DNA of 64,000 nucleotides from an uncultured Dehalococcoidales bacterium (GTDB taxonomy: Bacteria > Chloroflexota > Dehalococcoidia > GIF9 > AB-539-J10). The stretch spans positions 154,539 through 218,538 of the forward strand of contig CAZPGJ010000004.1 in the NCBI GenBank assembly GCA_964586515.1, written 5' to 3'. Below, piece after piece: positions 10,300 to 30,679 of this stretch. The notes beneath the pieces are model-generated. The model did no database searches, was not told where the DNA came from, and worked only from the letters and a program-made list of their open reading frames with translations. Position numbers and translations under genes: made by a program. Every line of letters begins with the position of its first letter. The first letter of the stretch is position 1.

Positions 10300-10300
10300 A

Positions 10301-11281
10301 ATGAATGTTCTGGTTACCGGGGGGGCTGGGTACGTCGGAAGCATCGTCACCGAGCACTTACTAAAACAAAAGCATAAAGTAATTGTCCTTGATAACCTGC
10401 GACAGGGACATAAGGAAGCTGTCTTATCACCCGCTGAATTTGTATTGGGCGATATATGCAGCGTTGAGACACTTGAGGAAATAATTCGCCGTTTTAAGAT
10501 TAATGCTGTAATGCACATGGCAGCCGAGACAGTGGTGGAGTTCTCCATAACCGACCCCTGGAGGTATTTCCAGAATAATGTAGTCGGGAGCTTAAACCTG
10601 CTGGAAGCGATGCGAAAGCACCAAGTCCACAAATTGGTCTTTTCGTCAAGCGCCGCAGTTTATGGAGAACCTGAGTCCACACCCATAGGGGAAGAGCATC
10701 CTAAAGCACCAATAAATGCCTACGGCGAATCTAAGCTTATGTTTGAACGTATTCTTAGCTGGTATGGCAGAGCCTATGGGATTAAGCATATATCCTTGAG
10801 GTATTTTTGTGCTGCTGGGGCGACAAAGCTTCTGGGTGAAGACCATCGTCCCGAGACACACCTCATCCCAAACGTCCTTAAAGCAGCCTTGAACATAAAC
10901 AATCCGGTTTCTGTATTTGGCACAGACTATCCAACGAAGGATGGGAGCTGCATCCGGGATTTCGTTCATGTGGTGGATATTGCCCAGGCCCATCTCTTAG
11001 CTCTAGAAAAGATAGGTGGCCTGAGCGGTAACATTTATAACTTAGGAAATGGCAAAGGGTATTCGGTGCTCGAGGTCATCAAAACTGCGGAGGAAGTTGC
11101 AGGCGTGGAAATCCCGGTCAAATTTTGCCCTCGCCGTCTTGGGGATCCCACAACCCTTGTGGCCAGTGCAGAACGAGCCATGCGAGGATTGGGCTGGAAA
11201 CCTCAATTTTCTAAACTCGAAGATATCGTCGAGAGCGCCTGGCGCTGGCTTAAGGACCATCCTGATGGATATAAGCAATAG
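10301..11281 (+). CDS. galE: UDP-glucose 4-epimerase
   Basis: GGAGYVGS, FSSSAAVYG, YGESK, LRYF, RDFVHVVDIA. Confidence 0.88.
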   Translation: MNVLVTGGAGYVGSIVTEHLLKQKHKVIVLDNLRQGHKEAVLSPAEFVLGDICSVETLEEIIRRFKINAVMHMAAETVVEFSITDPWRYFQNNVVGSLNLLEAMRKHQVHKLVFSSSAAVYGEPESTPIGEEHPKAPINAYGESKLMFERILSWYGRAYGIKHISLRYFCAAGATKLLGEDHRPETHLIPNVLKAALNINNPVSVFGTDYPTKDGSCIRDFVHVVDIAQAHLLALEKIGGLSGNIYNLGNGKGYSVLEVIKTAEEVAGVEIPVKFCPRRLGDPTTLVASAERAMRGLGWKPQFSKLEDIVESAWRWLKDHPDGYKQ

Positions 11282-11297
11282 CTGCATCGTCAAGGCA

Positions 11298-12041
11298 ATG
11301 ATACTTGCCGCAGGAGAAGGCACCAGGCTAAGACCACTCACCTTGGAAACTCCGAAGGTGCTTTTACCTGTAGCGGGTGTGCCACTGATTTATTATACCC
11401 TTGCCTGGCTCAGAAGCCATGGCATAGGAGAAGTATGCGTCAATCTCCACCACCTGGGTAGCAGGATAAAGGAGTCGCTTGGCGATGGCTCTCGGTTTGG
11501 AGTTAAAATCCGTTACTCTGATGAGGATGCACTTCTGGGGACTGCTGGCGGGGTGAAAAATGTTGAGGATTTTTTTGATGGCGCGTTTGTTGTTGTATAT
11601 GGGGATGTCCTTACCAATTTTGACCTCTCGAGCATGATGAAGCTCCACTGGGATAAGCAGGCTTTAGCAACGTTAGCAGTGACCGAGACGTTTAATCCTT
11701 CGGAAGTTGGTGTTGTTCAGATGGAAAAAGGCGGCAGGATTCTCTCTTTTCTTGAGAAGCCCCGGAAGGGAACTGAACCGGGGAATGTGGCGAGTGGTGG
11801 GATATACGTGTTAGAAAGGGATGTTCTTGACTTTATACCGAGCCAGGGCTTTTGCGATTTCGCCTACGACGTCTTCCCTAAACTCATAAGAGCAAATCTT
11901 CCTGTTTACGGGTATGTACTTAGACACGAAGATTACCTCATTGACATTGGCACCATTGACAAATACCTCAAAGCGAATGAGGATGTAAAATCAAGGAAGG
12001 TGAAAATAACGTATGAAGAACAGAGCAGTGTTCCTGGATAG
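11298..12041 (+). CDS. hddC: NDP-sugar pyrophosphorylase, probably heptose-1-phosphate guanylyltransferase
   Basis: MILAAGEGTRLRPLT..PK, LLGTAGG, YGDVL, IDIGT; substrate inferred from the hddA/gmhA/gmhB context; start trimmed from 11049. Confidence 0.75.
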   Translation: MILAAGEGTRLRPLTLETPKVLLPVAGVPLIYYTLAWLRSHGIGEVCVNLHHLGSRIKESLGDGSRFGVKIRYSDEDALLGTAGGVKNVEDFFDGAFVVVYGDVLTNFDLSSMMKLHWDKQALATLAVTETFNPSEVGVVQMEKGGRILSFLEKPRKGTEPGNVASGGIYVLERDVLDFIPSQGFCDFAYDVFPKLIRANLPVYGYVLRHEDYLIDIGTIDKYLKANEDVKSRKVKITYEEQSSVPG

Positions 12042-12627
12042 GGATGGTACTATTGCCCGGGATGTTCACTATTGCCGGCGGCCAGAGGATTTTGAACTGC
12101 TCCCCACCGTTCCTGAGGCGATAAAGCTTCTAAATGATAGCGGTTTCAAGGTTATAGTCATCACCAACCAGTCAGGTATTGCTAGAGGCTATTTTACAGA
12201 GCATACGCTGGCTAAAATTCACGAGAAGATGAAAGACGAGCTTGCTAAGCTTGGAGCGAAGGTAGATGCTATTTACTACTGCCCGCATCATCCTGACGAC
12301 GGCTGCGACTGCCGAAAACCACGAACAGCTCTTTTTCGCCGGGCTGCCCAGGATATGGCGATAGATTTCAATTCGTCCTATGTGGTTGGGGATTTGCCCA
12401 TGGACATAGAAGCTGGCAGAAATTTGGGATGCACAACGGTCCTCGTAGCTACAGAGCCTAAACAAGGAAAGGATATCCTAGGCTCTCCAGATTATACCGC
12501 AGGCACTCTCCTTGACGCTGCCCAGTGGATAACGAGACATGCACAGGCCCTTCACAAACCTAGAAACCTCCGTATCGACCGACGTTCCAGCAAAGCTGGT
12601 CATAATGACAATACCAAGGTAAATTAA
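12013..12627 (+). CDS. gmhB: D-glycero-D-manno-heptose 1,7-bisphosphate phosphatase
   Basis: FLDRDGT, ITNQSGIARG, CPHHP..CDCRKP. Confidence 0.9.
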   Translation: MKNRAVFLDRDGTIARDVHYCRRPEDFELLPTVPEAIKLLNDSGFKVIVITNQSGIARGYFTEHTLAKIHEKMKDELAKLGAKVDAIYYCPHHPDDGCDCRKPRTALFRRAAQDMAIDFNSSYVVGDLPMDIEAGRNLGCTTVLVATEPKQGKDILGSPDYTAGTLLDAAQWITRHAQALHKPRNLRIDRRSSKAGHNDNTKVN

Positions 12628-12961: not shown

Positions 12962-13885
12962 TCATTGTGAGTTAACAGGCTGGCATACCTTCAATTGAAC
13001 AATAAACTCGTTCGAAAATTTTTCTGGTTCATACGCACAACTGATCTCTAGGGGGATATTTGCTAGCTTCATTGCTTGAGGAAATATTTCACAAAATGAT
13101 TCAAAAGTCCACACGGTACAATGGGTATATGCGTCATTCCTTTCTCTTTCAATTAGTTTGATAATATCATCTGCGGAATGGAATTCATGCTGTTTTTCTG
13201 GTTTAAAGGCAGAATAGTCTAAAGTCCATGCATCTTTTGTATCAACTTTGCAAATATTCATAAAACAATCCAGGACTTGTTCAATTGATGGTTTTGTAAG
13301 CCCTTCTAAGTCATAAGCCAGTAATTGGGTTAATGTGGTTTCTCTTCTATAATAATCGAATGTATATCGCCGATCTGGTATTGCGAGGGATATTATACCT
13401 TTTGGTTGTATTATTTTCGCAAGACATCTCAACCAGCCAAGGGGATTCGGACAATGTTCAAGAATATGAGATGCAATAATATAGTCAATCGTTTTTACCT
13501 TGGATAGAATATCTTCGTAGGAAATCTCTTCAATAACAAAATCTACTGGGACGATGTTTCCTATTTCTAACCATCGGGCGCCCTTATATTTCTCCCTTAA
13601 TCGTTCAGTCGAAAAAAGGTTAACATAATAAATAGTGCCTTCGTCTTTCCTAACGACAGGAACATGCAGTGGGCCTATTTCCAGGCCAACGCCTGAAGTG
13701 ACACTACAGCCCATCCGCAATTTGTCATTTCGACTTAATTGATTATTTTGGACTCGTTTGAAACGGGATTTCTTTGCAGTAAGTGTTTTATCAAGCGCGA
13801 ATAATAGGTAGCGCGTGAATGCAAGGGGATGCTTCAAAATACCTTTCTGACCATAGATCTCCTTGGCTCTGTTTATGAGACTCAT
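12962..13885 (-). CDS. SAM-dependent methyltransferase domain protein
   Basis: GLEIGPLHVP, DYIIASHILEHCPNP, LAIPDRRYTFD; visibly AT-rich. Confidence 0.75.
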   Translation of the reverse strand: MSLINRAKEIYGQKGILKHPLAFTRYLLFALDKTLTAKKSRFKRVQNNQLSRNDKLRMGCSVTSGVGLEIGPLHVPVVRKDEGTIYYVNLFSTERLREKYKGARWLEIGNIVPVDFVIEEISYEDILSKVKTIDYIIASHILEHCPNPLGWLRCLAKIIQPKGIISLAIPDRRYTFDYYRRETTLTQLLAYDLEGLTKPSIEQVLDCFMNICKVDTKDAWTLDYSAFKPEKQHEFHSADDIIKLIERERNDAYTHCTVWTFESFCEIFPQAMKLANIPLEISCAYEPEKFSNEFIVQLKVCQPVNSQ

Positions 13886-16800
13886 GGTAGCGCGCTACCC
13901 TGGCCAATCAGTATTGGCGAAAGCTCGCCGAGATGGGAGAACAAGAACCTCATCAACCCCTCATAATCTGTCCGTACAATAATATCGAATAGTCTTCGGA
14001 CCTGTGGCGTAGGATTGTTTCCAACCAGCAGAACGCCAAGGCCGTGCCCGTGCTCAAATTCAAATGACGGGTAGAGACTTTTGACCTCTTGCCAGAATTT
14101 CCATACCCCGAACGTCTCCCCATATTCTTGAGTATCGTGTAACATAATAATTCCACGGTCAGACATCTTGGGCAGCCATAAGTTGAAGTCGTGAGAGACT
14201 GCTTCGTAGGTATGTAGGCCATCAATGTGCAAAAGATCGATGGAACCAGCTTCAAATTGGAGACAGGCTGCGTCAAATGTCTTTCTAATATACTTGCCGC
14301 AATTCTGATATTTTCTATTCAGGATGGACGTGAATTCTCTAAAAACGTCTTCTCCGTAATAGCCGGCTTGTTTATCACCCTGCCAGGCATCAATGGCGAT
14401 GCATTCAATTGCTGATCTCATGTCGCGTGAGGCCTGACATGCTGCGAAAAAGCAATTTCCGTAGTGGGCCCCAAGCTCGACAAAGCGTCTTGGTTTCATA
14501 AAACCCAGAAGGCAGAACAGAAACGGTATGTGTGCCTCCCATGCAGACAGGGCCGGATCTTCGTGAGGCGTAAAGGCCTTTGAGAGGAATTGGCTCAGGA
14601 GTTCTGTCTCCGTAAGCGACTTCAAAAACTCCGTATCTTCGGTGAATGCGGGCGCTAGACTGCCAAACTTCGACGCATTTGCGCAGCTATTAAGTGCAGC
14701 AATTCCCGTCTCTCCTTCTGGATTGCCTGTCCCCACAACCCTAAGGAACTTCTCCAGTTTTTTGTTCTTGTGTTCCTTTAGGAACTCCTTTGCCAGTTGC
14801 AAAAACTTGTAACGGCGGCGGATTTGGGGCAGCGGTTCGAGATGAGCAATATCGAGAGGGGCGCGGGTCCAGCCAGCCGCTAGTAAGTCGTCAATGCTTA
14901 CGCCATCAGCGCTATACAGGCTGGGCTGACCGTAGTACGCGGCGAAGTCACGAACCACATCAAGGCTTAACGTTCCCTTCTTCAGCACCCTTTCAATCAT
15001 ATCTCTCCAATGAAATCCCCACCTGGGGTCCTTACGGGCAGCCGGGAGCGCATCATAAGCGAGATAAATCTGTATAAACTTTAAGGCGAAGTGGTCCAGG
15101 CTGCGAATCGGTATGTGTATCAGCTCACCGAGGTCAACTTCAGTTAGTCCGCTAACTGTCTCGCCCGAGTCATCTTTGACGCCGTGATTTCCCTGGATGA
15201 ATCGCCAGCTCTTGTTAATGAATGCTGATGAATGTATGGCAACCTTCTTGTAGGCGCCTCGAAAGGGGGGAATCAGGCAGGGCGATGCAAATGTAAACTC
15301 TTCATCTGTTGTCAGGGATGCCGGGACGCAGTTTTTCCAATGGAATGCCAGCAGATAGTCACTTTTCGCGTCCTTGATATGCGATAGGAACTCAATCCGG
15401 CTTGTGATGGATAGGAACTCGTCCGCATCAAGGGGGAAAATCCAGGAATCAGGATACTCGTGGGCGGCAATTCCAGCCAGTTTGTTTGTAATGTCCGCCT
15501 GATAATACCCCGGATTGTCGAAGGAAAACACCTTGATATTATCTCGAGCTTCTGCCATCTGGAGGAGGAATTCCCGGGTCCCATCAGTTGAGAGATGGTC
15601 GGCTGTGTAGACCATGTCGAATAGGGCGCAAATGTGGGACATCCATGCCGCAATCATGTCTCCCTCGTTTCTTACGAGGGTGACTGCCACAGCCGCTGGC
15701 TTATCGCCAGCCTTCTTCGCTAACGCCTTCGGTTCACGGAGACTAATTAGTTTAAGAGGATGGAATATGCTTCTTTCCTTCCGATAACTACTCACGATGT
15801 CTTCATATGTCCTAATTACGTCGTCTGTCACATTCTCTATATAAAATTTAGCTATGAAATCTTTTCTTGCATTGGCCCCCACATTCTCTCTAATTTCTTT
15901 GTTCTCTATAAGCAAGACCAGTTTCTTTACCCACTCTTCTTTTGAACCCGCCAGAAAGCCGTTTTTACCGTCTGTAATGCATTTACCGTAACTATCAGTT
16001 CGGGATGCGACGGTGGGGACGCTCACTAAGGCTGCTTCAAAGATTTTCAGTTCACTTTTCCCGGCAGTGAACGGGTTATTTTGTTCCAGAGGTGCGATGT
16101 TGATGTCCAGCCGGGATAGATGGTCGAGCATGTCGAGGTAGGGCATAAACGGTTTTCTGACAATCCTGCTACCGAACCTATTGAATCCTTTGGGCAAGAC
16201 TACAGCGCCTACTATATGTAATTCCGTATTTTCATATCTTTCCAATATCTCATACAGTGCGTCCGCTGCCTCCAAGAAGTCCTTGTCGTGCGTCACTGTT
16301 CCGCTAAAGTAGCCTATCTTTATTTTCTTCTTCTCTTCGGCGTACCCCCTGGACATCAATTTTTCTGCCAGTTCGTACTGAGCTTTATTTATGGTATTTG
16401 GGACGACGAATGTTCTCTTGCCCCTGGCCCGGCTCCTGCTTGCCAGATAATCTGTGGGGCAGGTGGCGAAATCGCATCTGTCTAAAGTGTCACGGAAACT
16501 CTTGGGATACTCATATCTTTGGGAAGCCGTCCAGCTTTTCCAAGGGTATATAAAATTGGCTGATTCCGGTTCGAATACGAGGTCGTCGCAGTCAAAGACG
16601 ATAGGTACGTCGTGCAGTCTGAATTCGTCAATGATTCTTTGCATATTTTCAGACAGGGCTGCCCTGAAGATTATCGCCACATCTGGAGTTGGAAGCTCCT
16701 CCAGCCTTTCCGCGATCCTTTCACGGCAAACGTAACATTCGATTCCTCTGCTCGCTAAACCTTCAATAATGTTATAGACTCTGTACCTGCAGGATGTAAA

Positions 16801-17163
16801 GACAAATTGGCTGACCTCGTCGCCCGGTACGAATACCACCCCCTTTATCGTTCGAGATCCGATGATTCCAGATGAAAGCTTTGAAACCGAAGGGGCATAA
16901 ATTTCGAAGTTGCGCTGCCGTTTAAGGATTTTCGAGACGGCATCTACGCGAAACGATGTATAAACTCTCAGCCACCATCTTCCTTTTATGAAGAAGCTCC
17001 TCCAGCCTTCGTTGCGGATGACCCAGATGGCCCTCAGTCCAAGCTCATAATAGTAGCGCCTTCTGGTACCCGGGCGAAATAGTTTCCTAAGAACCTTTCG
17101 ACGTGTATTCAGCAAGAATTCGTTACCCATGGCTGCCCACCTGTGCATCTCTTTTGCCTGCAA
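13882..17163 (-). CDS. Multidomain glycan enzyme: NEGW module + GT4-like + GT2-like + class I methyltransferase
   Basis: FDCDDLVF / KSELKIFEAA (GT-B); LVRNEGDMI..DHLSTDGT..PLDADEF (GT2-like); ELGAHYGNC..HIDGLHTYEAV (methyltransferase). Confidence 0.85.
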   Translation of the reverse strand: MQAKEMHRWAAMGNEFLLNTRRKVLRKLFRPGTRRRYYYELGLRAIWVIRNEGWRSFFIKGRWWLRVYTSFRVDAVSKILKRQRNFEIYAPSVSKLSSGIIGSRTIKGVVFVPGDEVSQFVFTSCRYRVYNIIEGLASRGIECYVCRERIAERLEELPTPDVAIIFRAALSENMQRIIDEFRLHDVPIVFDCDDLVFEPESANFIYPWKSWTASQRYEYPKSFRDTLDRCDFATCPTDYLASRSRARGKRTFVVPNTINKAQYELAEKLMSRGYAEEKKKIKIGYFSGTVTHDKDFLEAADALYEILERYENTELHIVGAVVLPKGFNRFGSRIVRKPFMPYLDMLDHLSRLDINIAPLEQNNPFTAGKSELKIFEAALVSVPTVASRTDSYGKCITDGKNGFLAGSKEEWVKKLVLLIENKEIRENVGANARKDFIAKFYIENVTDDVIRTYEDIVSSYRKERSIFHPLKLISLREPKALAKKAGDKPAAVAVTLVRNEGDMIAAWMSHICALFDMVYTADHLSTDGTREFLLQMAEARDNIKVFSFDNPGYYQADITNKLAGIAAHEYPDSWIFPLDADEFLSITSRIEFLSHIKDAKSDYLLAFHWKNCVPASLTTDEEFTFASPCLIPPFRGAYKKVAIHSSAFINKSWRFIQGNHGVKDDSGETVSGLTEVDLGELIHIPIRSLDHFALKFIQIYLAYDALPAARKDPRWGFHWRDMIERVLKKGTLSLDVVRDFAAYYGQPSLYSADGVSIDDLLAAGWTRAPLDIAHLEPLPQIRRRYKFLQLAKEFLKEHKNKKLEKFLRVVGTGNPEGETGIAALNSCANASKFGSLAPAFTEDTEFLKSLTETELLSQFLSKAFTPHEDPALSAWEAHIPFLFCLLGFMKPRRFVELGAHYGNCFFAACQASRDMRSAIECIAIDAWQGDKQAGYYGEDVFREFTSILNRKYQNCGKYIRKTFDAACLQFEAGSIDLLHIDGLHTYEAVSHDFNLWLPKMSDRGIIMLHDTQEYGETFGVWKFWQEVKSLYPSFEFEHGHGLGVLLVGNNPTPQVRRLFDIIVRTDYEGLMRFLFSHLGELSPILIGQGSALP

Positions 17164-17314
17164 GATATGCCTTCACTTTCCTGAAGAAGCTGCTCCAGCC
17201 TTCATTTAGGATGACCCTGATAGCTGTCGGCCTGAGCTCGAAGTAGTAACGTCCTCTGACGCTCGGGCGTAAGAACTTTTCAACTGTCCTTTGATACCTG
17301 TTCACAAGACGCAT
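17123..17314 (-). pseudogene. Detached NEGW C-terminal module, probably the frameshifted tail of the GT4 gene
   Basis: MRLVNRYQRTVEKFLRPSVRGRYYFEL..IRVILNEGWSSFF, homologous to the C-terminus of 22719..23816. Confidence 0.6.
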
Positions 17315-18782
17315 GACTATCCCCGGCTGAGTCTGCTATGATTGAGCCTCGGGATTCCTTAAGTAGCTTTTTTGCGAACGCTTTCCGTTCTATGATGTCT
17401 TCGTATATTTCAATTACGTCATCTGCTACATTCTCTATATAAAACTTAGCTATGAAATCTTTTCTTGCATTGGCCCCCACATTCTCTCTAATTTCTTTGT
17501 TCTCTATAAGCAAGACCAGTTTTTTTACCCACTCTTCTTTTGAACCCGCCAGAAAGCCGTTTTTTCCGTCTGTGATGCATTTGCTGTAGCTATCTGTCCT
17601 GGATGCGACCGTAGGGACACTCACTAAGGCTGCTTCAAAGATTTTCAGTTCACTTTTCCCGTCCTTGAGCGGATTATTTCGTTCGAGAGGAGCGATGTTG
17701 ATGTCCGTCTGTGATACATATTCGAGCATGTCGAGGTATGGCATAAACTCTTTTCTAATAACCCTGTCGCCAAACCTGCTAAATCCTTGAGGCAAGTCTA
17801 AGCCACCTACTGCATGGAATTCGGTGTTTTCATATCTATTCAGTACCTCATACAGCGCTTCTACCGCCTCCAGGAAATCCTTATTGTGTAATTTCCCACC
17901 GCTAAAGTAGCCTATCTTTATTTTTTCATTTTTTTGGCCGCAACTCCTGGTCGTCAATTTCTCTGCCAGTTCATATTGAGCCTTATTTATGGTATTTGGG
18001 ATGACAAAGGTTTCCTTGCCTCTCGCCCGGATCCTATTTGCCAGATAATCTGTGGTGCACGTGGCAAAATCGCACCTTTTGACAGTGTCAAGGAAACTTT
18101 TGGCAAACTCGTATTTTTGGGAAGCTGACCACCCTTCATACCAGTCTATGTAATTGGCTAATGCCGGTTCGAATACGAGTTCGTCGCAATCAAAAACCAC
18201 GGGTATATTGTGCCGCTTAAAGGTGTCAATAGTTACCTGTACGTTTTCAGACATGGCTGCTCCGAAGATGACCACCAAGTCAGAGGTTAGGAGTTCTTTG
18301 ATGTTTTGCCGGTTCATCCTGTAGAATACGTTGCACTGGATTCCTTTAGCTGTCAGGCCTTCAATGATATTGAAGACTCTGTACCTGCTTGATTGACTAG
18401 AAGGGTGACGTATCAAATCGCCCGGTAGGAATGAGACCTTTCTGACCGCACTAGTCGGTCCCTTCGACGTAGAAGGTGCATACACCTCTATTGTATCCTT
18501 TGCGACCGTTCCCTTCTTACCCAGTTCATAACGCACTGCGGCTACGGTCTGGCGCAAGCCATGCGTCTTGTAATATCTAAGTGTCCTGGGAACAGCATCT
18601 AGTGGAGGGAATCTGTGTTCCAGCCAGCCTCTTGTTTTTTTGAAGAAACTGTGCCAGCCTTCGTTCCGGATGACCCAGATGGCCCTCAGCCCAAGCTCAT
18701 AATAATAGCGGCTTCTGGTACCCGGGCGAAATAGTTTTTCAAGAACTTTTTGATACATGCCCAGAGGAAATTTCTTACTCAC
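17280..18782 (-). CDS. NEGW module + GT4-like glycosyltransferase
   Basis: Paralog of the GT-B part of 13882..17163 (RYRVFNIIEGL, FDCDELVF, KSELKIFEAA); GTG start. Confidence 0.85.
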   Translation of the reverse strand: MSKKFPLGMYQKVLEKLFRPGTRSRYYYELGLRAIWVIRNEGWHSFFKKTRGWLEHRFPPLDAVPRTLRYYKTHGLRQTVAAVRYELGKKGTVAKDTIEVYAPSTSKGPTSAVRKVSFLPGDLIRHPSSQSSRYRVFNIIEGLTAKGIQCNVFYRMNRQNIKELLTSDLVVIFGAAMSENVQVTIDTFKRHNIPVVFDCDELVFEPALANYIDWYEGWSASQKYEFAKSFLDTVKRCDFATCTTDYLANRIRARGKETFVIPNTINKAQYELAEKLTTRSCGQKNEKIKIGYFSGGKLHNKDFLEAVEALYEVLNRYENTEFHAVGGLDLPQGFSRFGDRVIRKEFMPYLDMLEYVSQTDINIAPLERNNPLKDGKSELKIFEAALVSVPTVASRTDSYSKCITDGKNGFLAGSKEEWVKKLVLLIENKEIRENVGANARKDFIAKFYIENVADDVIEIYEDIIERKAFAKKLLKESRGSIIADSAGDSHASCEQVSKDS

Positions 18783-18920
18783 TGTTGCTTACTTGCTCTG
18801 TCTATTTTGCCTAGAAGATAGCCCTTGACTTGTCTGAAAAAGCTTCTCCAGCCTTCGTCGCCAATAACCCTGATTCAAGAAATAACAAGGTGGTAGACGC
18901 AATTTATTTTCATAACCTAC
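18779..18920 (-). pseudogene. Decayed NEGW C-terminal module of a deleted gene
   Basis: YHLVIS-stop-IRVIGDEGWRSFFRQVKGYLLGKIDRASKQQ-stop; the final TGA overlaps the GTG of the next gene. Confidence 0.7.
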
Positions 18921-19139
18921 TTAGAAATGTATTTGCATATCATACCGTTTTCGCTTTTCGCCTAGGCTCGCGCTCCTTGATTCTCTGCCTTATAAACTCC
19001 TCTATTCTTCCGCATATGCCCTCTTGGTCGGGAAAGGCCTGCACGTAATTGTACCCATTCAGTGCTCTTCTTTCCCGCTCCATGTCGTTTGCATAATGCG
19101 CACTATTTATTGTGCCATAATCTCTGGCACAGGCTTCAG

Positions 19140-19330
19140 GAGATACACATTCTCTCTCACAATTACGGTACGGCATATTTCCTTTAGCCGAGCAATATAG
19201 TTTTGACCGACCTTTGAAGTGGTAACAACGATGGAACTAGATACCTCCTCCAAGCTGCGCAGAAAATACCAGACGTATTCGTCAACCAAATTGTGTCTGT
19301 CAAAATGGCGGAGATACAAACACGTTTCAT
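19140..19330 (-). pseudogene. Frameshifted, truncated RgpF-type rhamnan synthesis protein N-terminus
   Basis: ATG at 19330 (ATGA overlap with upstream stop) gives MKRVCISA; a one-base shift continues HFDRHNLVDEYVWYFLRSL..VIVRENV, typical of the RgpF N-terminus; homology then ends. Confidence 0.7.
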
Positions 19331-22300
19331 TTGCCTTGATCTTGATATGGCTTCCTCACGAATAGCTCGAAGCCTGCTGCAATCTTTTCCTGCGACGTCT
19401 GGCTCAGCCCAAAGAACATCCGCCATATTTTGGAATGACGCAGCGCCGGCTTGCGCCAAAGGTCAACTAACTCACCGCACGAAGTGGATCGAAACATTTC
19501 AGCTGCGGGCTTACCCATATCTGCTTGCAATGCTGACTGAGCCTCCGAGAGGAGCCAGGAAATTGCATAAGCAGGGTTGAAGTTGTCTGATACTTGGAGG
19601 TCAAGAATTTCAAATGGCTCGAACCACTTTTCAAGCCCATAGCGGGTAACATTGTAAAAATGCCACGGTGCTTCATGCGTGGGCTGAAGAAATGCTGTAT
19701 GGACGAGGGCCTGCCCTCCAGGGCGAAGTACACGATAAATTTCAGAGGCTACACGAAGAGGAGAATGATAGTGCTCAAACGCATTCATAGCTATAACCGC
19801 TGAGAACGTGTTATCGGCAAAAGGTAAAATATGAGCGTCAGCCACTATATCAGTGTGGTGAAAGATTGCCGCTTCAACCTCAACTACATTTTCACATCGG
19901 CATATTGTGCCCCCAGCGCTCAAATTTAATATCCATCCTGGTACGTTTTTTATTAACTCTTGTGCGCGGTGGCTTAGTGGATTACTTATGTGGTCCTGCG
20001 GCATTACTTTAGGAGTCGCAAGTCCGGGGAAAAGAATTGGTCGGCCATGAACGATTGGCCACTCGCGTCCGCTACGAGCAGAACGCAGTGTATTGCCATC
20101 TGCCAGTTCGAGTGGTTCGCAAGTTTCAGGACAGCGCAACAGTGGGATGATTTGGTTAAGACGCCCGACGGCATCCTCACTATTTGTAAACCCACTCTCA
20201 CCAGCCTCCGACCCTGATACTTCCTTGACTACGACAGGGCATATCGTAGGCTGGTTGTCTGGGGCTGGTAAGGGCACCTTAAGCCACGGGTGGCGCTTCT
20301 GTATGTAGGTAACTAAGCGCCGCTTGAACACGGGAACCTCCGTCTCCGTTCTGCACAGAGATGCCTCGTGGACGCGGTAACGCGCCAGTACCTCAGGCAC
20401 ATTCCAACCGAACATCCCGCTCTCAGCGAATTTACACCATAAATCGTAGTCCTCCCACCCGTACACTAGGTCATAGCCACCAACCCTACTCCATGCAGCT
20501 TTTCGAACCAAGGCCATGGCATCAATATAATTCCCACCGGCTAGGCGGGTGACATCAAAGGGTTGGTAGCCCATCATAACACTATCGTCACCAAAACGCT
20601 GGATTTGTGGATATACAAAAGACGCCCCTGTTTCCTTGATGACCTCGAGACAGTGAGCAACGCAGTCGGGTAATAGTTCATTGTCAGGATCCAGCGGCAA
20701 GACAAAGGAAGTTTCCGCCTCGGCAAAACCAACATTGCGTGTAAGGTCCAACCCCGCGTTTGTAGCGTTCTTGACCAGCAATGCGCGGTTGAAACGCTCC
20801 GCATGTTGTTTCAGCCACTTCAGGGCAAGGGCAGGCGAATCATCGGTAGATACATCGTCTACCACAACCACGTCAATATCGGGTATAGTCTGCCTGCGAA
20901 CAGAGTTGAGCGCTTGCGTTATATATTGTCGATAATTGTGGAGCGGAATAACCACCGTTACTTCGGATGGACGAAGCGCATCGTGTTCAAAGACGATTTC
21001 ATGTTGAGGAATAGTGGGAACATTAGTCTTTAATTCGCTAGCACGCAAAATTTCAAGTTGGAAAGCTAGCGCTGCACGCCGCCCCCGATGCAATACCTGT
21101 TCAATCAGAGGGGCCATCAGCTCTATTTGCCGCTCTGGGCCGTACGACCAAAGAACATCATGAAAGGCATTTTGCGCAATTTGCCTTCGCAGCTCGGCAT
21201 CTTTAACCAACCTTGAGAGAGCCTCATACCACTGCTCTTCAGTTTCGGCCAAAAAACCGGTTACCGCGTCACGGATTGCTAACCGAAAAGGCTCCGTCGG
21301 GGACGCGACCGTTGGTACACCAACCAGGGCAGCCTCAAAATACTTTAACTCGCTTTTAGCCTCACAAAACAAATTTGTCACCTCAAGGGGTGCAATGTTA
21401 ATATCAAAGCGTGCCATTTCATCAGGTAGTTGATTCAATGGGACAAACGCCCGCCACTCAATTTGGGACTCTAAGCTAGCTAACTCTGGAAACTCAGAAA
21501 TGGCGAGACATTGTCTATCCCGGTAAAAAAGTACCAGACGAGAGTTAGGGTGCTCCCGCAGGACGCGGGCCACAGCACCCGCTGCTTGCCTAAAATCTCG
21601 TTGGTGGGTACGAGTACCAGCTGCGTAACCGATGCGAATTAGGCCGTCTTCTTTTGTGAGCTTACGTCTCCTGACCGCCATTCTTGAAACCCGCAAGGTC
21701 TCTTCATCAAAGCCGTTGGGTAAAATCCAGGTTGGTTTCCCCATCTGGCGCATATGCTGAGCTAATAAGGGAGTGGGAGCAATGCAATAATCGGCCCGAA
21801 GCAATGCCATCCGAACACGCTCATAGACCTGTTGCACGTGTTTTTCATTGAGTTCCTGGCTGCGTATTCCATCTATCACCTCCCTCGCTGCAAGTTTAGG
21901 CTCGAACATGAGATCATCTACGTCAAATACTATGGCTGCGCCGTGTTGCCGGGCAGCGTCGACTGCCAGAGCAACAGCCCCATCCCATCTGGCGCGCCAA
22001 ATAATCAAGATGTCAGCTCTTGAAATTTCAGGTAAACGAGCAGCAATTTCTTCCACCCTTACGATATTCGTAATTGCCCCCAGCATCTTCGCTGCGGCAG
22101 CATATCGTTCAACACGGTAGATATGACCCGGCTGGTCAGGTTCCCCGGAGATATACGTTATTCGAGGCCGTTCAGGTGCGACAAAAGAACTGGCTCGGGT
22201 TGTCACCTGCGGCCCCCCGAGCTCCTCGATTTTGTCTGAGGAGGGCATGTCATCAGAGTTCCGAATATTGCTTGCCACCCTGCGGGGAAGTCGCTGATGA

Positions 22301-22716
22301 GCATCTTGCAGCCTGTCTGCTATCGTGTTATTAAGTACAGCTGCATCTGTAGCGCGCAGGTGGTAAAGGAACTCTCTGATATTTCTTCTGTTGAGATTTC
22401 TAGCAACCGCTTTGGGTTTGATTACAGCCGTGAGTGCTAATCTTGCCAGAAGCCGCCTTCTTGTGCCTGGAGGTAATATCTTGTTGGCAATGCCATGCAC
22501 CTTGTAGTGTCTGGATGTCCCGGGAACAGCATCTGGTGAGAAGAGTCTGTGTTCCAGCCAGCCTTTTGTTTTTTTCAAGAAGCTCCGCCAGCCTTCATTC
22601 CGGATGACCCTGATGCCCCCCAGCACAAGCTGGCAATAGTAACGCCTTCTGCTGCCCGGGCGTAATAGTTTTCCAATAACTTTTTGATACATACTCGGAG
22701 AAGATTTGTTACTCAT
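19327..22716 (-). CDS. Multidomain glycan enzyme: NEGW module + GT4-like + GT2 + Trm112-like knuckle + methyltransferase
   Basis: FDVDDLMF / KSELKYFEAA; VVIPLHNY..VVDDVSTD..PLDPDN; LRCPETCEPL; DIVADAHILPF..NAFEH. Confidence 0.85.
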   Translation of the reverse strand: MSNKSSPSMYQKVIGKLLRPGSRRRYYCQLVLGGIRVIRNEGWRSFLKKTKGWLEHRLFSPDAVPGTSRHYKVHGIANKILPPGTRRRLLARLALTAVIKPKAVARNLNRRNIREFLYHLRATDAAVLNNTIADRLQDAHQRLPRRVASNIRNSDDMPSSDKIEELGGPQVTTRASSFVAPERPRITYISGEPDQPGHIYRVERYAAAAKMLGAITNIVRVEEIAARLPEISRADILIIWRARWDGAVALAVDAARQHGAAIVFDVDDLMFEPKLAAREVIDGIRSQELNEKHVQQVYERVRMALLRADYCIAPTPLLAQHMRQMGKPTWILPNGFDEETLRVSRMAVRRRKLTKEDGLIRIGYAAGTRTHQRDFRQAAGAVARVLREHPNSRLVLFYRDRQCLAISEFPELASLESQIEWRAFVPLNQLPDEMARFDINIAPLEVTNLFCEAKSELKYFEAALVGVPTVASPTEPFRLAIRDAVTGFLAETEEQWYEALSRLVKDAELRRQIAQNAFHDVLWSYGPERQIELMAPLIEQVLHRGRRAALAFQLEILRASELKTNVPTIPQHEIVFEHDALRPSEVTVVIPLHNYRQYITQALNSVRRQTIPDIDVVVVDDVSTDDSPALALKWLKQHAERFNRALLVKNATNAGLDLTRNVGFAEAETSFVLPLDPDNELLPDCVAHCLEVIKETGASFVYPQIQRFGDDSVMMGYQPFDVTRLAGGNYIDAMALVRKAAWSRVGGYDLVYGWEDYDLWCKFAESGMFGWNVPEVLARYRVHEASLCRTETEVPVFKRRLVTYIQKRHPWLKVPLPAPDNQPTICPVVVKEVSGSEAGESGFTNSEDAVGRLNQIIPLLRCPETCEPLELADGNTLRSARSGREWPIVHGRPILFPGLATPKVMPQDHISNPLSHRAQELIKNVPGWILNLSAGGTICRCENVVEVEAAIFHHTDIVADAHILPFADNTFSAVIAMNAFEHYHSPLRVASEIYRVLRPGGQALVHTAFLQPTHEAPWHFYNVTRYGLEKWFEPFEILDLQVSDNFNPAYAISWLLSEAQSALQADMGKPAAEMFRSTSCGELVDLWRKPALRHSKIWRMFFGLSQTSQEKIAAGFELFVRKPYQDQGK

Positions 22717-22718
22717 GG

Positions 22719-23816
22719 TTACTTACTTGCCCTGCCTTTCCTTCGAAGATGTGCCGCCACTTCTCTGAAGAAGCTTTTCCAGCCTTCGTTCAAGATTACC
22801 CTGATGCCACTGAGCCCCAGTTCGTAGAAACGGCGGCGGCGAGTGCCCGAGCGCAGCAGTTTTTCGGTGACTTTCTGGTAGCGGTTCACGAGCTGCATAG
22901 GTATGCTTTGTTGAATCTGGTGTAGCTGGGATTCCAGGCTGTGTATCTGAGATTCCAGGCCATTTATCTGGGAGGCTTTCTCCCGACGGCTCGCCTCGAG
23001 GGAAATTATCCTGGAGTCCCTGGCCCGTAGGGTGCTATTAAGCTCACTAGTCTGCCTTTCGTAGTCTTTCACAAGGCTATCAGAGACATCGACAAGCCAG
23101 CTATTTACATTGACGACCTGTGGCTCGAAATTAGCATCCGAAGCTAGGCCCACGATATACCAAGGTCTTTTCTTATTAGTTCCCGTGAAATAAAATTCCT
23201 TGTCTCTCTTGTCTGTTACAAACTCCCTGTGGCTGGAGTGTTTGTCGGATGAAATGTTCCAGAGGTTTGACCCGGAATAGACCTTCTGCCCCAGCAGGTG
23301 TACATTCCTGAAGTATGTCCCCAATAGTTGCTCGAATTGACTATGGTACAATTCTTTTACATGAAAGGAACTGGTCAAGCCAAGTTCGTCTGTGAGGACC
23401 TTTTTATTCGGTGTTGAGACAATAAATAAACCGTCGTCCTTTAGCAGCCTCTTGACTTCAGACAAAAGCTTGTCGTGTTCCTCTACATGCTCAATGCCTT
23501 CAAAGCAGACAGCCACATCGAACTTCTTCTCGCCTTCAATAGGTACAGCGAGTATGGAGCCTTGTATAAACTCCAGATTGTCTTTTATGTATCTGCCCCT
23601 GGCGTGTTGTACAGTTGGTTTGTCGATTTCCACGCCGGTGACGTGTTCGGCTTCTCTGGCTAACATGTATGTGCCATAGCCCTCGCCGCAGGCAAGGTCC
23701 AATACTTTTTTGCCCTTTACAAAGTGAGAAGCAAAGGCGTACCTGTGAAGGTGCTCATACTGAAGCCGGGTCTCCTCAATCCAAGGCAAAAACCTCTCGC
23801 CCGTGTATTCAAGCAT
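22719..23816 (-). CDS. Methyltransferase + coiled coil + C-terminal NEGW module (WbdD-like layout)
   Basis: YTGERFLP, HLHRY, VLDLACGEGYG, FEGIEH; heptads LESQIHS-LESQLHQ; MQLVNRYQKV..NEGWKSFF. Confidence 0.85.
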   Translation of the reverse strand: MLEYTGERFLPWIEETRLQYEHLHRYAFASHFVKGKKVLDLACGEGYGTYMLAREAEHVTGVEIDKPTVQHARGRYIKDNLEFIQGSILAVPIEGEKKFDVAVCFEGIEHVEEHDKLLSEVKRLLKDDGLFIVSTPNKKVLTDELGLTSSFHVKELYHSQFEQLLGTYFRNVHLLGQKVYSGSNLWNISSDKHSSHREFVTDKRDKEFYFTGTNKKRPWYIVGLASDANFEPQVVNVNSWLVDVSDSLVKDYERQTSELNSTLRARDSRIISLEASRREKASQINGLESQIHSLESQLHQIQQSIPMQLVNRYQKVTEKLLRSGTRRRRFYELGLSGIRVILNEGWKSFFREVAAHLRRKGRASK

Positions 23817-23821
23817 TGCGG

Positions 23822-24559
23822 CTATTTTCCTTGCAGCATTGCCAGATAGTGATTTATTACACTCTCAGTATCACCCATGGTGACAATCTGGCCTTCGTTC
23901 AATAGTATCGACCGGTCGCACAGCTTCTTCACGGACTCCAGGGCATGTGAGACAAAGACTATGGTCCTGCCGTCGGTTTTGAACTGGTTCATCTTGTCCG
24001 CGCACTTTTTCTGGAAGGCTTCATCGCCCACGGCAAAGACTTCGTCTATGAGGAGGGTGTCAGGGGTGGCGTTGATGGCGGTGGAGAAAGCCAGCCGCAG
24101 GAACATGCCGGAGGAAAAGTTCTTCAGCTTCATATTTTCGAATTTCTTGAGCTCGGCGAAGTCGAAGATGTTGTCATAAGCCTTGTCCACCTGTTTTCGC
24201 CCCAGGCCGAGGATGGAGGAGTAGATATAAACGTTTTCGCTGGCAGTTAACTCGGGTTGAAAGCCAACGCCCAATTCCAGGAAGGAAGCAACCTTGCCGT
24301 TCATGCTGACCGAGCCACTGTTAGGGTACAGGACCTTTGCCAGTATTTTGAGCAGTGTGCTCTTTCCCGAGCCGTTCCTGCCGATTATGCCCAGCGCTTC
24401 GCCCTTGTTGACCTCGAAGCTGACGTTCTTTAGCGCCCAGAACTCTTCGTAGCTGAACTGCCTCTTGATAAGGCCGACTACGTTCTGGAAGACCGTGGTC
24501 TTCTTTTCGTGGGGGATGCGAAATCTCTTGGAGACGTTGTCTACGACTATGGCGCTCAT
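23822..24559 (-). CDS. wzt: Polysaccharide ABC transporter ATPase, without C-terminal carbohydrate-binding domain
   Basis: FWALKNVSF, GRNGSGKST, FSSGMFLRLAF, IDEVFAVGD; 245 aa. Confidence 0.92.
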   Translation of the reverse strand: MSAIVVDNVSKRFRIPHEKKTTVFQNVVGLIKRQFSYEEFWALKNVSFEVNKGEALGIIGRNGSGKSTLLKILAKVLYPNSGSVSMNGKVASFLELGVGFQPELTASENVYIYSSILGLGRKQVDKAYDNIFDFAELKKFENMKLKNFSSGMFLRLAFSTAINATPDTLLIDEVFAVGDEAFQKKCADKMNQFKTDGRTIVFVSHALESVKKLCDRSILLNEGQIVTMGDTESVINHYLAMLQGK

Positions 24560-24567
24560 TAGTCTAT

Positions 24568-24735
24568 TTCACCCTCACCTTAATCCTCTCCCGTCCAGGG
24601 CGAGGAGAAATGGTTGGCAGTCCTCTCCCATCGAGGGAGAGGAAAGATAGTCGGCAATTCTCTCCCACCAGGGGAAAAGCAGATTGCCATGTCCCGAGAT
24701 CCCTCGCTTCAGCTCGGGACGACTCGCGATGACGG
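24568..24735. repeat. Repeat cluster between wzm and wzt (CCCTCACC..CCTCTCCC family plus GTCA/TGAC right half)
   Basis: CCCTCACCTTAATCCTCTCCC, CCTCTCCC-ATCGA-GGGAGAGG, and GATTGCC..GTCCCGA..TCGGGAC..CTCGCGATGAC. Confidence 0.75.
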
Positions 24736-24763
24736 CCAAGGCCGTTGTCCACAATTATGGCGC

Positions 24764-25519
24764 TCATGCCAGCTCCTCGGCAAACCGGCGGTGTAATCTG
24801 CCGAAAACGAGGCTGCCCACGAGAAAGGCGGCGGCGGCGAAACCAACGACGACCACAACGCTATACGGTGAGGGCAAAGTCCCGGCGACCATTACATCGC
24901 GGTACATAGTTATGAACTGAGTTACCGGATTAAGCGTGTAATAGGGTAATAGAGAAGCAGGAACTATGCTAATGGGATAGAAGATGGGTGAGCAGAAGAA
25001 GAGGACCTGGAGCAGGACTTGCCATATCTGGTTCAGGTCACGGAAGTAGACATAAAGAGAGGACAAGAGCAGCCCGGCGCCGTAAATGAACCAGAAGAAG
25101 GGTATGTAAATCAGGAGGAACAGCGGCGTCGTGACGGGCAAATGTCCGAGCACGACGACTATTATGAGCAGCAAGACCACAAACGTGAGCAGGGAATTTA
25201 TCAGACCGGACAGGACATCGCTCAGCACCAGTATCTGACGCGGTATGTAGACCCTGGTTACCAGGCTGGCCTTGCCGACGATGGCCTGGAGGCCGGAGTT
25301 GGTGCCGGTGGCGAAGAAATTCCAGGCCATTATGCCCACCAGCAGGTTTATGGCGAAATTCTGCTCTTGGCCGTACAGGTGTCTGAAGACGAAGTACAGG
25401 ACGCCTGCCATCAGAAGCGGGCTGAGCAGAGACCAGAAAAAACCAAGGGCGGTATTCTGGTAGCGGTTCTTGAGGTCAACGGTGGTCAGGTTCCAGATTA
25501 GCTCTCGGTATTGCAACAT
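24764..25519 (-). CDS. wzm: Polysaccharide ABC transporter permease
   Basis: DLKNRYQNTALGFFWSLLSPL, YFRDL, PIFYP, LNPV. Confidence 0.92.
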   Translation of the reverse strand: MLQYRELIWNLTTVDLKNRYQNTALGFFWSLLSPLLMAGVLYFVFRHLYGQEQNFAINLLVGIMAWNFFATGTNSGLQAIVGKASLVTRVYIPRQILVLSDVLSGLINSLLTFVVLLLIIVVVLGHLPVTTPLFLLIYIPFFWFIYGAGLLLSSLYVYFRDLNQIWQVLLQVLFFCSPIFYPISIVPASLLPYYTLNPVTQFITMYRDVMVAGTLPSPYSVVVVVGFAAAAFLVGSLVFGRLHRRFAEELA

Positions 25520-25831: not shown

Positions 25832-26407
25832 TCAATCACAGGGAGGAGTCATTCCTGAGCCCGGCTTCTTCGAGCTTCCATCGCCCCCTGCTAGACCTGC
25901 AAAGTCTTGTGGGCGACCTCTGAATCCGTTGTCTTCTTTCGAATCTTCTTGTTTAAAACGCAGTGACCAACAAAATCCCAAATTGTCAAAAGCCGAGCCC
26001 GCGCTATCTAGAACTTCCGGAGTATCGTAGAAATAGATTTTAGGTACACAACATCTGATAGAAGCGTCGGTTTCTATGGTATTCACCAGCTTAGAGATGC
26101 GTGTTGATTCCACAACTGTATCACTATTAAGCAGGAAGATGAAGTCTCCGTCTGCCAGTTGCACGCCTCTATTATTCCCTTCTGCGAAGCCGTAATTCTT
26201 ATCCAGTGCAAGTATATGGACCCAAGGGAAGGTGTTCTCTACATATTCTACAGACCCGTCTTGGGAAGCATTATCAACAAATACTATTTCGAATCTGTCT
26301 CGGGGATAATCTGAGTTTTCTAAGGAAGCAAAACATTCTCCCAAGAAACGCTTGCCATTGTAATTGACCACGATGGTGCTTACAAAGGGAAGGTTATTGT
26401 TATTCAC
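25832..26407 (-). pseudogene. C-terminally truncated GT2 glycosyltransferase
   Basis: IVVNYNG, VDNASQDGS, NYGFAEGNN, LLNSDT; similarity to neighbour 26459..27430 stops after GFCWSL and the frame ends in repeat-like DNA. Confidence 0.75.
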
Positions 26408-26458: not shown

Positions 26459-27430
26459 TTACCTCGCAATGTGCAGTAGTTGAGCCCACTCCAGATTCCA
26501 ATTCAGCCTTCGAAGCAAGGCGAAGTCGGAAATCTTTCTTAATAGCTGGTACTGGTCTCGCCGCTGCTTTATATTGCTCCACTCTCGCCACAGGGAAGCC
26601 AGGGCATCAAATTTGGCCCTGATATATGACCGGCCCTTGGCCAGACTATAGATTATTATCATGAGCTCTATTACCAGGAGTATGGGCAGGCAAGCTAGTA
26701 AGGTTAGAGGTTTTAACGTGCTCAATAGCAGAATGTGCCGATTTTTCTCGAGGCGAAATAGTTTCTCAGGGTCCATCTTCAGGCGGTATTTGTGAAAGAC
26801 TGTTGATTCGGGCAGGCAGTATATCTCATGACCCATCAAACGCAGGAGCCAGGAGACGATGACATCGTCGTTCCCCATAAAGCACCACCCGGGTGCGCCA
26901 CCCATCTGTTCGAGCAACTGGCGCCTAATTAGATAGGAGCAACCGCTGACCCCAGGCACGTTCTCAGGGATGACTGAATTATCATCCTCCCTGCCTAGAC
27001 TGCGGCAAAAGCCCAGGCCAGTGATATGAATATTCAACCCCAGGGCGTTGATTTTAGTCCGGTCATTAAAAAGCAAAACCTTAGGCGTTACGGCTCCTGC
27101 CTGCGGGTTCTTATCTAAAAAAGCTACCATAGCACTTAGCCAGTTGGGAGCAACTTCGGTGTCTATGTTGAGTGGCGCAATATAGTCACCAGTAGCATAA
27201 GCTAAGCCAGCATTAATACCACCAGCATAACCTAAATTTTTATCGTTAACAACAAATGTCAAGTCAGGGAACTTGCCTCGAGCGTACTCTAAGCTGCCAT
27301 CGCTGGAATTGTTGTCAACGAAAATAACCTCGAAATTCTTATAGCTTTGTTTCAAGACTGACGAAATGCAAGCATCAAGATGCGACATCCCATTGTAATT
27401 TACTAAAATCACCGACGCTTTCTTTGCCAT
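26459..27430 (-). CDS. GT2 glycosyltransferase (rhamnosyltransferase-like)
   Basis: VILVNYNG, VDNNSSDGS, NLGYAGGIN, LNIDTE. Confidence 0.88.
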   Translation of the reverse strand: MAKKASVILVNYNGMSHLDACISSVLKQSYKNFEVIFVDNNSSDGSLEYARGKFPDLTFVVNDKNLGYAGGINAGLAYATGDYIAPLNIDTEVAPNWLSAMVAFLDKNPQAGAVTPKVLLFNDRTKINALGLNIHITGLGFCRSLGREDDNSVIPENVPGVSGCSYLIRRQLLEQMGGAPGWCFMGNDDVIVSWLLRLMGHEIYCLPESTVFHKYRLKMDPEKLFRLEKNRHILLLSTLKPLTLLACLPILLVIELMIIIYSLAKGRSYIRAKFDALASLWREWSNIKQRRDQYQLLRKISDFALLRRLNWNLEWAQLLHIAR

Positions 27431-30651: not shown

Positions 30652-30679
30652 GAAGTAATGCTGCCGTGTCTTACCTTGT

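Follow-up and report, generated by a model that had tools for sequence, protein, structure and literature searches.

We describe a small protein module that recurs at gene junctions in a 64,000-nucleotide stretch of DNA (the window, numbered here from its first letter) from an uncultured Dehalococcoidales bacterium (GenBank assembly GCA_964586515.1, contig CAZPGJ010000004.1, positions 154,539 to 218,538). The module is about 50 residues long (…RPGTRRRYYYELGLxGIRVIxNEGWRSFF…) and is present in six copies that form three pairs, each consisting of a tail copy followed across a gene junction by a head copy. Judged by its conservation in sequence, it is a genuine family of proteins that has not been described before. 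We propose, at a probability of roughly 0.55, that the module is a membrane-proximal 'foot' that brings glycan enzymes devoid of transmembrane (TM) segments together at the site of assembly on the membrane. What is new is a sequence-defined module at a known kind of junction, with an unusual arrangement of paralogous tails and heads.

The assembly of glycans that depend on ATP-binding cassette (ABC) transporters requires complexes of a coiled-coil terminator with polymerase glycosyltransferases (GTs). To our knowledge, the means by which these parts locate one another and the membrane have been worked out for only a few enterobacterial models. The module provides a recognisable sequence handle for this junction across a broad set of uncultured bacteria (Dehalococcoidia-type and other metagenome-assembled genomes (MAGs)), and it marks the place at which the machine changes between its fused and its split form.

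Six module copies in the window

All module copies and their host genes lie on the minus strand, and all six copies reported by the first-pass annotation of this DNA are present, at or near the places where it had put them. A profile hidden Markov model (HMM) of the copies, scanned against all 64 kb in six frames, recovered exactly these six (45-113 bits; next best match, 9 bits), with the exception of one weak half-copy in the H1 protein. Nine columns are invariant in an alignment of the six peptides, I..VI..EGW.SF among them. As DNA the copies are mutually 60-81% identical, which places their conservation at the level of the protein and speaks against a recent DNA repeat. A plain DNA repeat or a mobile element was rejected for this reason.

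The first tail, T1 (22722..22898; 96.9 bits), is intact, has no deviation at family-conserved columns and forms the C terminus (MQLVNRYQKVTEKLLRSGTRRRRFYELGLSGIRVILNEGWKSFFREVAAHLRRKGRASK, then the stop) of a 365-residue methyltransferase that is a candidate chain terminator (gene 22719..23816). The N terminus of this protein is a class I S-adenosylmethionine (SAM) methyltransferase (residues 19-160; Pfam Methyltransf_11/23/25/31), and residues ~247-324 are a heptad or coiled-coil stretch, visible both as sub-threshold Pfam matches of the coiled-coil type and as a heptad pattern (INGLESQIHSLESQLHQIQQ) read directly. The ATG of the following gene (19327..22716) is found 2 nt beyond the T1 stop. 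Its 1129-residue product begins with the head H1 (22516..22716; core 22546..22695, …YQKVIGKLLRPGSRRRYYCQLVLGGIRVIRNEGWRSFLKKTKGWLEHR; 87.2 bits) and, according to Pfam, also contains GT4, GT2 and methyltransferase domains. Residues 76-100 of the same protein (22423..22497; KILPPGTRRRLLARLALTAV) make up the weak half-copy, a tentative assignment at 14.6 bits and a domain E value of 0.31 in the first scan.

The second tail, T2 (18782..18874), is a remnant that lacks its first 30 profile positions, so that only its second half is readable (IRVIGDEGWRSFFRQVKGYLLGKIDRASKQQ, then the stop; HMM positions 31-53, 32.8 bits); upstream of it, from 18875 to ~18920, the sequence is degenerate and contains stops. 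As had been noted before, the stop of T2 overlaps the next start, with its TGA lying over the GTG of the H2 gene (17280..18782). The 500-residue product of that gene consists of the head H2 (18582..18782; core 18612..18764; 91.6 bits), a conserved 'RYYKTHGLRQTV' helix and a GT4 of the GT-B fold, as identified by Pfam, AlphaFold2 (AF2) and Foldseek. T3 is a detached open reading frame (ORF) of the tail type (17123..17314), 63 residues in translation, that shares 35 nt with the end of the H2 gene and also overlaps the start of the H3 gene. The H3 gene (13882..17130; ~1080 residues) encodes the head H3 (16936..17130; core 16966..17115; 76.5 bits), followed in Pfam scans by a GT4, a GT2-like domain and Methyltransf_24. 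The gene probably starts with the ATG at 17130 (ATGGGTAA), which overlaps the T3 stop, rather than with the mechanically listed TTG at 17163, a choice guided by the geometry of the junctions in other loci. The tail opening M(Q/R)LVNRYQ that was described earlier holds for T1 and T3, and the TxGWLEHR extension ascribed to two heads reads T(K/R)GWLEHR in H1 and H2.

All three of the tail-head pairs claimed by the first-pass annotation exist; T2 is shorter than was thought, only T1 is intact on an enzyme and the pairs are not independent of each other. T2|H2-GT4 and T3|H3-GT4 are the two units of a ~1.6-kb tandem duplication (repeat spacings of 1598-1653 nt; GT4 bodies 68-100% identical), so that the three pairs cannot be counted as independent events. 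In sliding-window comparisons of identity, the H2 gene at its 5' end is pieced together from stretches that resemble H1 and stretches that resemble H3. Positions -23 to +36 and +127 to +184 are nearer to the H1 unit (78-82%, versus 50-70% to H3), and positions +37 to +96 are nearer to the H3 unit (90-93%), as is the whole GT4 body. This patchwork points to gene conversion among module copies, and the mosaic agrees with the earlier suggestion that module DNA supplies homology for the swapping of GT cassettes. We also note that the 3' parts of the two GT4 genes (~17400-17560 for H2 and ~15800-15960 for H3) are 98-100% identical over ~100 nt and 68-90% identical elsewhere, which indicates recent gene conversion.

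With T1 undamaged, T3 departing from the consensus at 7 conserved columns (G17S, T18V and L28P among them) and T2 halved, T1|H1 is the sole intact tail-head junction of the window. T2 and T3 look like scars, the decaying leftovers of gene duplication. The ~450 bp between the stop of the H1 gene and T2 (18875..19326, minus strand) form a spacer that holds no recognisable gene; its translations gave short ORFs only, none of them with a Pfam match, and it is probably the decayed body of a gene that formerly ended in T2. We envisage that a tail-head-GT4 unit would have been duplicated in tandem, carrying T2 and T3 along, and that its copies would later have swapped patches by gene conversion.

The module family and its tail-head pairs in related loci

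The statement that the module belongs to no named family held up. Pfam and NCBIfam gave no match over the module, in host proteins or in isolated modules, even at E <= 10; the best match of the module profile in a sequence search of the PDB had an E value of 0.13; and a literature search for the motif strings of the module returned nothing. When 1.84 billion representative proteins were searched exhaustively with the profile, 162 representative clusters passed the cut-off of E <= 1e-3. An earlier word-index search with a 55-residue profile, which was of limited sensitivity, had found 12 short proteins only. Among 158 domain hits the module is internal in 71, C-terminal in 39 and N-terminal in 31, and 17 lie in proteins of at most 110 residues; some of the terminal positions will stem from fragments at contig ends. 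A single internal copy in a fusion protein is the commonest state (71/158 domain hits; 30 loci).

Pfam scans of 29 relatives revealed what flanks the module. On its N-terminal side are Methyltransf_11, Methyltransf_24, FkbM or PS_pyruv_trans, and sometimes a GT2 or radical-SAM block. A coiled coil separates this upstream enzyme from the module, and the end of the coiled coil (…QQIQxSIPMQL…) is conserved as well. The C-terminal side carries GT2+GT4 in 6/10 cases and otherwise GT4+RgpF, GT2+WbsX, GT2 or GT4. Close homologues of wzm and wzt, which encode the permease and ATPase of a glycan exporter, lie directly upstream on the same strand in 20 of the 29 related loci of at least 9 kb, and the Wzt homologues adjoining module genes match at E values down to 1e-139; wzm, wzt and the methyltransferase-tail gene are likewise consecutive in the window. 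Genomic matches were all to MAGs, namely four Dehalococcoidia/Dehalococcoidaceae, two binned Pirellulales, one Methanocellaceae and one Deltaproteobacteria, and the DNA of the window itself has matches in metagenome assemblies only. The family is rare (those 162 clusters) and so far confined to uncultured lineages.

Selection has maintained the module. Across 73 sequences about 25 of its columns are at least 80% conserved, and the signature GT..R..Y.L.L.GIRVI.NEGW..F is invariant. The ratio of nonsynonymous to synonymous substitution rates (dN/dS) is 0.27 for the tail or internal type and 0.26 for the head type, a mark of purifying selection read at a dS of about 0.7-1, which is near saturation. 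These values bear on the idea that the copies are functionless recombination scars or linkers whose adjacency is merely a by-product of duplication. The decay of T2 and T3, the truncated or damaged stand-alone copies that are also present in other loci and the gene conversion among copies are all in its favour, but the low dN/dS, the conserved columns and the retention of both subtypes in many loci despite differing flanking enzymes make it very improbable.

A six-frame scan covered 84 related loci, 73 of which were kept as non-redundant; as they had been retrieved with the six-copy alignment, this set is biased towards copies containing I[RW]VI[RLG][ND]EGW. It contains 22 adjacent pairs; in 18 of them a stop codon lies between the two copies, and the other 4 (L012, L015, L048 and L071) are in frame. 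The order was fixed in 22/22, with the tail type (VILNEGW) upstream and the head type downstream, L032 being a partial exception in that its upstream copy reads VIR instead of VIL. Downstream copies read VIRNEGW or a K/W/H/V variant. Full-length modules of a split pair would, by projection, be some 30-45 nt apart, and the gap projected for the pairs overall is about 32 nt. At 7/18 distinct junctions the stop codon overlaps the start codon (ATGA/GTGA), and at most of the others the two lie within 30 nt of each other. Adjacency is far more frequent than expected by chance, and the HMM search with scoring of neighbours extends the tail-head arrangement seen in the window, with its stereotyped spacing and fixed order, to 22 of 73 loci. 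Unpaired copies are also common: 30 loci have single internal copies, 8 heads lack a preceding tail and 16 tails lack a following head despite at least 300 nt of downstream sequence. Several loci also have a gene with a tail whose downstream neighbour carries no head and itself ends in a tail.

Tails and heads are distinct subtypes. The tail consensus is QLVNRYQRivEKLLRpGTRRRRYYELgLTGIRVILNEGWKSFFRKVKAhLrgr and the head consensus, which often starts only at M19, is …myqkvl.KLl.pGtkmRYYYrLVLaGIRVIRNEGWRSFfrKfk.WLr.R; the two differ in L36 versus R36, K41 versus R41 and AHL versus WL. Nucleotide identity between loci is 73% for tail-tail and 71% for head-head comparisons, higher than the 68% between tail and head within a locus, and the duplication thus predates these loci. 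Tail-head pairs from the same locus are slightly more alike than pairs across loci (permutation p ≈ 4e-4). Single internal modules are tail-like at positions 1-36 and intermediate at positions 37-54, a pattern that is suggestive of fission after tandem duplication or of fusion via tail/head recombination. We rejected the simpler description of internal modules as clean tail/head recombinants, as positions 37-54 are only intermediate and the pattern is not decisive on direction. Many heads are half-modules that begin at the Met of profile position 19 (MRYYYxLVL…), as in L002:1198-1260, L024, L056 and L083. In L002 the ancestral ATG overlapping the tail stop is still visible and runs into a stop, which shows that the first helix of this head was lost secondarily.

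Such regularity could reflect a specific docking pair, in which the tail of the coiled-coil protein binds the head of the next GT as a helical-bundle heterodimer and draws the polymerases, perhaps in the order of their genes, towards the base of the ruler. Tail-to-head order and spacing are fixed in 22 loci, the subtypes have their own characteristic residues, the overlap of stop and start suggests coupled translation and very different enzymes are joined across the same junction; both types have also been under purifying selection since an old duplication, and there is a precedent in WbdD, whose C-terminal region recruits WbdA. A dedicated pair sits poorly, however, with the 30 loci that have a single internal copy, the 16 tails without a head, the 8 heads without a tail and the proteins that have a tail and no head. 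Within the window, H2 and H3 sit behind truncated and degenerating tails, and pairwise ordered docking cannot operate there. Docking of this kind appears doubtful to us.

The putative role of the module and the surrounding locus

Each copy has a net charge of +9 to +12 in ~58 residues, 6-13 of which are aromatic, and the helical hydrophobic moments reach 0.7-0.94 in 11-residue windows. No TM-like segment was found in the proteins that carry T1, H1, H2 and H3 (maximal 19-residue Kyte-Doolittle mean of 1.45, compared with 3.10 for Wzm). The copies are cationic, aromatic, amphipathic helices on TM-less proteins, the characteristics of a peripheral amphipathic anchor. The first-pass annotation had offered membrane anchoring as an alternative to docking, and it appears to fit the charge, the aromatic residues, the amphipathicity and the missing TM segments. 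Because the enzymes are TM-less yet act on a lipid-linked acceptor, and because the module is basic, aromatic-rich and amphipathic, membrane targeting is its probable role; its place behind the coiled coil, whether fused, tandem or split, leads us to regard it as the machine's membrane-proximal foot.

AF2 modelled the H2 protein with a mean predicted local distance difference test (pLDDT) score of 87 from a multiple sequence alignment (MSA) of 125 sequences. The head is predicted to form three helices (residues 7-17, 23-41 and 43-57; pLDDT 72-84) with a break at NEG. It is followed by a low-confidence linker (58-71), a helix at 67-91 ('RYYKTHGLRQTV…') and a standard GT-B GT4. Foldseek matched the GT4 body only (MshA/PglA/PimA). 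The nearest GT4 homologues of H2 lack the head and keep the YYxxHGL helix, which makes the head an accessory. As a proxy for a tail-head heterodimer we used P0013, a natural protein with the order methyltransferase-coiled coil-tail-head-GT2-WbsX. In its AF2 model a continuous helix of 51 residues runs into the tail.

We propose the following mechanism. The module would be a mini-domain of ~50 residues with three short predicted helices, belonging to an ABC-transporter-dependent machine for glycan assembly. In the basic, WbbB-like form a capping enzyme (methyltransferase or pyruvyltransferase) with its coiled coil, the module and the polymerising GTs would share one polypeptide. An old duplication would have produced the tail type (VILNEGW) and the head type (VIRNEGW), and a split between the two would have left the tail on the terminator and the head on the polymerase, an arrangement like that of WbdD and WbdA. 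Each copy would target its enzyme to the anionic surface of the membrane, near the lipid-linked acceptor, and would thereby co-localise terminator and polymerases, with direct contact between tail and head as an optional extra. Along with membrane targeting, we infer the assembly of a complex and the role of the methyltransferase as terminator.

Several observations weigh against a simple foot. The invariant GT..R..Y.L.L.GIRVI.NEGW..F exceeds what a generic amphipathic anchor needs and hints at a defined partner or ligand, and the consistent differences between tails and heads are not obviously explained by a pure membrane anchor. The coiled coil of the methyltransferase in the window is short (~80 residues), the part of this enzyme as terminator is assigned from its architecture and the Wzt of the window does not have the carbohydrate-binding domain that reads the cap in Escherichia coli O9a. 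Over both modules of P0013, which was modelled from a shallow MSA (27 sequences), pLDDT was only 34-58, and the model, at this low confidence, contains no confident tail-head packing.

The invariance of the signature could mean that the module binds a specific anionic ligand or partner rather than the bulk membrane, for example the undecaprenyl-pyrophosphate end of the growing chain or Wzm/Wzt. The invariant RRR, aromatic and NEGW residues, the tight synteny with wzm-wzt and the position of the module at the membrane end of the coiled coil would suit such a ligand. We nevertheless hold it to be improbable, given that 9/29 loci of at least 9 kb have no wzm/wzt within the fetched flank and that the module has no similarity to known lipid- or transporter-binding domains.

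The physical properties and models also bear on docking. Both supposed partners carry a net charge of +9 to +12, and AF2 gave no confident tail-head packing in the in-frame tandem of P0013, a result from a shallow MSA that by itself speaks neither for nor against docking. The original proposal, that consecutive enzymes dock in gene order in the manner of polyketide synthases (PKSs), is not supported by these findings together with the single internal copies, the unpaired tails and heads and the decayed tails. A looser association of tails and heads inside one complex is possible. A more far-reaching version, to which we give little credence, is that tail and head are a cognate, portable pair of connectors: the tail at the foot of an oligomeric coiled-coil ruler would capture head-tagged GTs at the membrane, and the DNA would double as a crossover site. 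If true, three different head-tagged polymerase GTs would be captured in the window, and uncultured Chloroflexi-like bacteria would be re-assorting terminators and polymerases and switching between fused and split forms, with a docking code for glycan assembly lines. Should there be binding between tails and heads, or of both to a common site, the pair would offer a simple, transferable tag with which to assemble or re-wire glycan polymerase complexes, and the HMM would be useful for annotating metagenomes for terminators and polymerases. As a membrane anchor only, the module would be a tidy, ordinary addition to a known theme.

The genes around the module copies are those of a cell-surface glycan locus. 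Upstream of the methyltransferase gene, and also on the minus strand, lie wzt (23822..24559), encoding the 245-residue exporter ATPase (Pfam ABC_tran, E 2.2e-21) without a C-terminal carbohydrate-binding extension, and wzm (24764..25519), encoding the ABC-2 permease of the exporter (Pfam ABC2_membrane, E 2.9e-19). Sugar-nucleotide genes are found on both flanks (8762-12627 and 29719-32455), including a GHMP kinase, two epimerase/dehydratases, a nucleotidyl transferase and a GlmS-like amidotransferase, from which the whole of 8.7-32 kb can be taken as a single glycan biosynthesis locus. The gap between wzm and wzt (24535-24767, minus strand) holds an insert of ~208 bp between 25-nt direct repeats (24535-24559 and 24743-24767; 88% identity) that duplicate the first codons of wzt. 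Within the insert are two tandem palindromic units of 37 nt (24584-24620 and 24621-24657), and it creates a 67-residue ORF starting, like Wzt, with MSAIIVDN. It looks like a small insertion with target duplication, similar to repetitive extragenic palindromes or miniature inverted-repeat transposable elements (REP/MITE-like). A 191-residue GT2 fragment with an odd C terminus (25832-26407) adjoins a full GT2 of 323 residues (26459-27430) and is probably a broken or frameshifted gene.

Comparison with known systems

Chain-length machines that depend on ABC transporters have a coiled-coil ruler with the terminator at its far end and the polymerase at its membrane-proximal end. The module can be set beside several known systems. 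Docking domains of PKSs and non-ribosomal peptide synthetases are likewise short helical elements that lead from a C terminus to the next N terminus across gene junctions and occur in fused or split form. PKS partners are structurally complementary, whereas tails and heads are paralogues of like charge, predicted to have the same helices; the module usually occurs as one internal copy, with unpaired tails and heads being common; and no colinearity with a pathway is evident at module loci.

WbbB of Klebsiella pneumoniae O12 and ORF6-O7 combine a capping enzyme, a coiled coil and GTs in one protein, as do the commonest relatives of the module, which have it at the boundary between coiled coil and GT. 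In both proteins the GTs of the polymerase follow the coiled coil within one polypeptide, and orthologues exist with and without the C-terminal GTs (PMC11231755). The comparison is one of architecture; the terminators differ, being a 3-deoxy-D-manno-oct-2-ulosonic acid (Kdo) transferase or a methyltransferase-kinase there and methyl- or pyruvyltransferases here, and a conserved junction module has been described for neither.

We observed a second, unnamed element in proteobacterial proteins of the order terminator-coiled coil-GT (P0160, P0243, P0250 and Mesorhizobium P0173-P0210). These have STSWRxTxPxR just after the coiled coil, often joined ~40 residues further on by YxREGxxGIxRR. It corresponds to no Pfam family and may deserve a description of its own. 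In full-length homologues of P0013 it stands where P0013 has the module. Like the module, it is basic and ends in xEG-hydrophobic-xx-hydrophobic-basic; its length and signature are different. Homology between the two was rejected (hhalign probability of 1.7%), and their equivalence is positional only.

A parallel for the split layout is WbdD of E. coli O9a and K. pneumoniae O3. There, as here, the gene for a methyltransferase (terminating in WbdD, a candidate terminator in the window) adjoins wzm-wzt, a coiled coil (a probable one in the window) leads into a non-catalytic segment at the C terminus and the multi-GT polymerase is a separate protein. The protein in the window has no kinase domain, its coiled coil is much shorter and its Wzt is without a carbohydrate-binding domain; its polymerase bears a paralogous copy of the module, which has not been described for WbdA. 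The comparison with WbdD, made against PDB constructs that do not include its C-terminal region and thus limited to the methyltransferase part, gave generic Rossmann methyltransferase similarity only (4azs, E 8e-5, residues 36-126). The C-terminal region of WbdD contains an amphipathic helix that associates with the membrane, as well as the recruitment site for the polymerase WbdA, the coiled-coil protein has been described as a membrane-associated scaffold, and fused and split layouts are both known (PMC11231755; PMC3482155). By its position and the architecture of its hosts, the module may work like this C-terminal region of WbdD.

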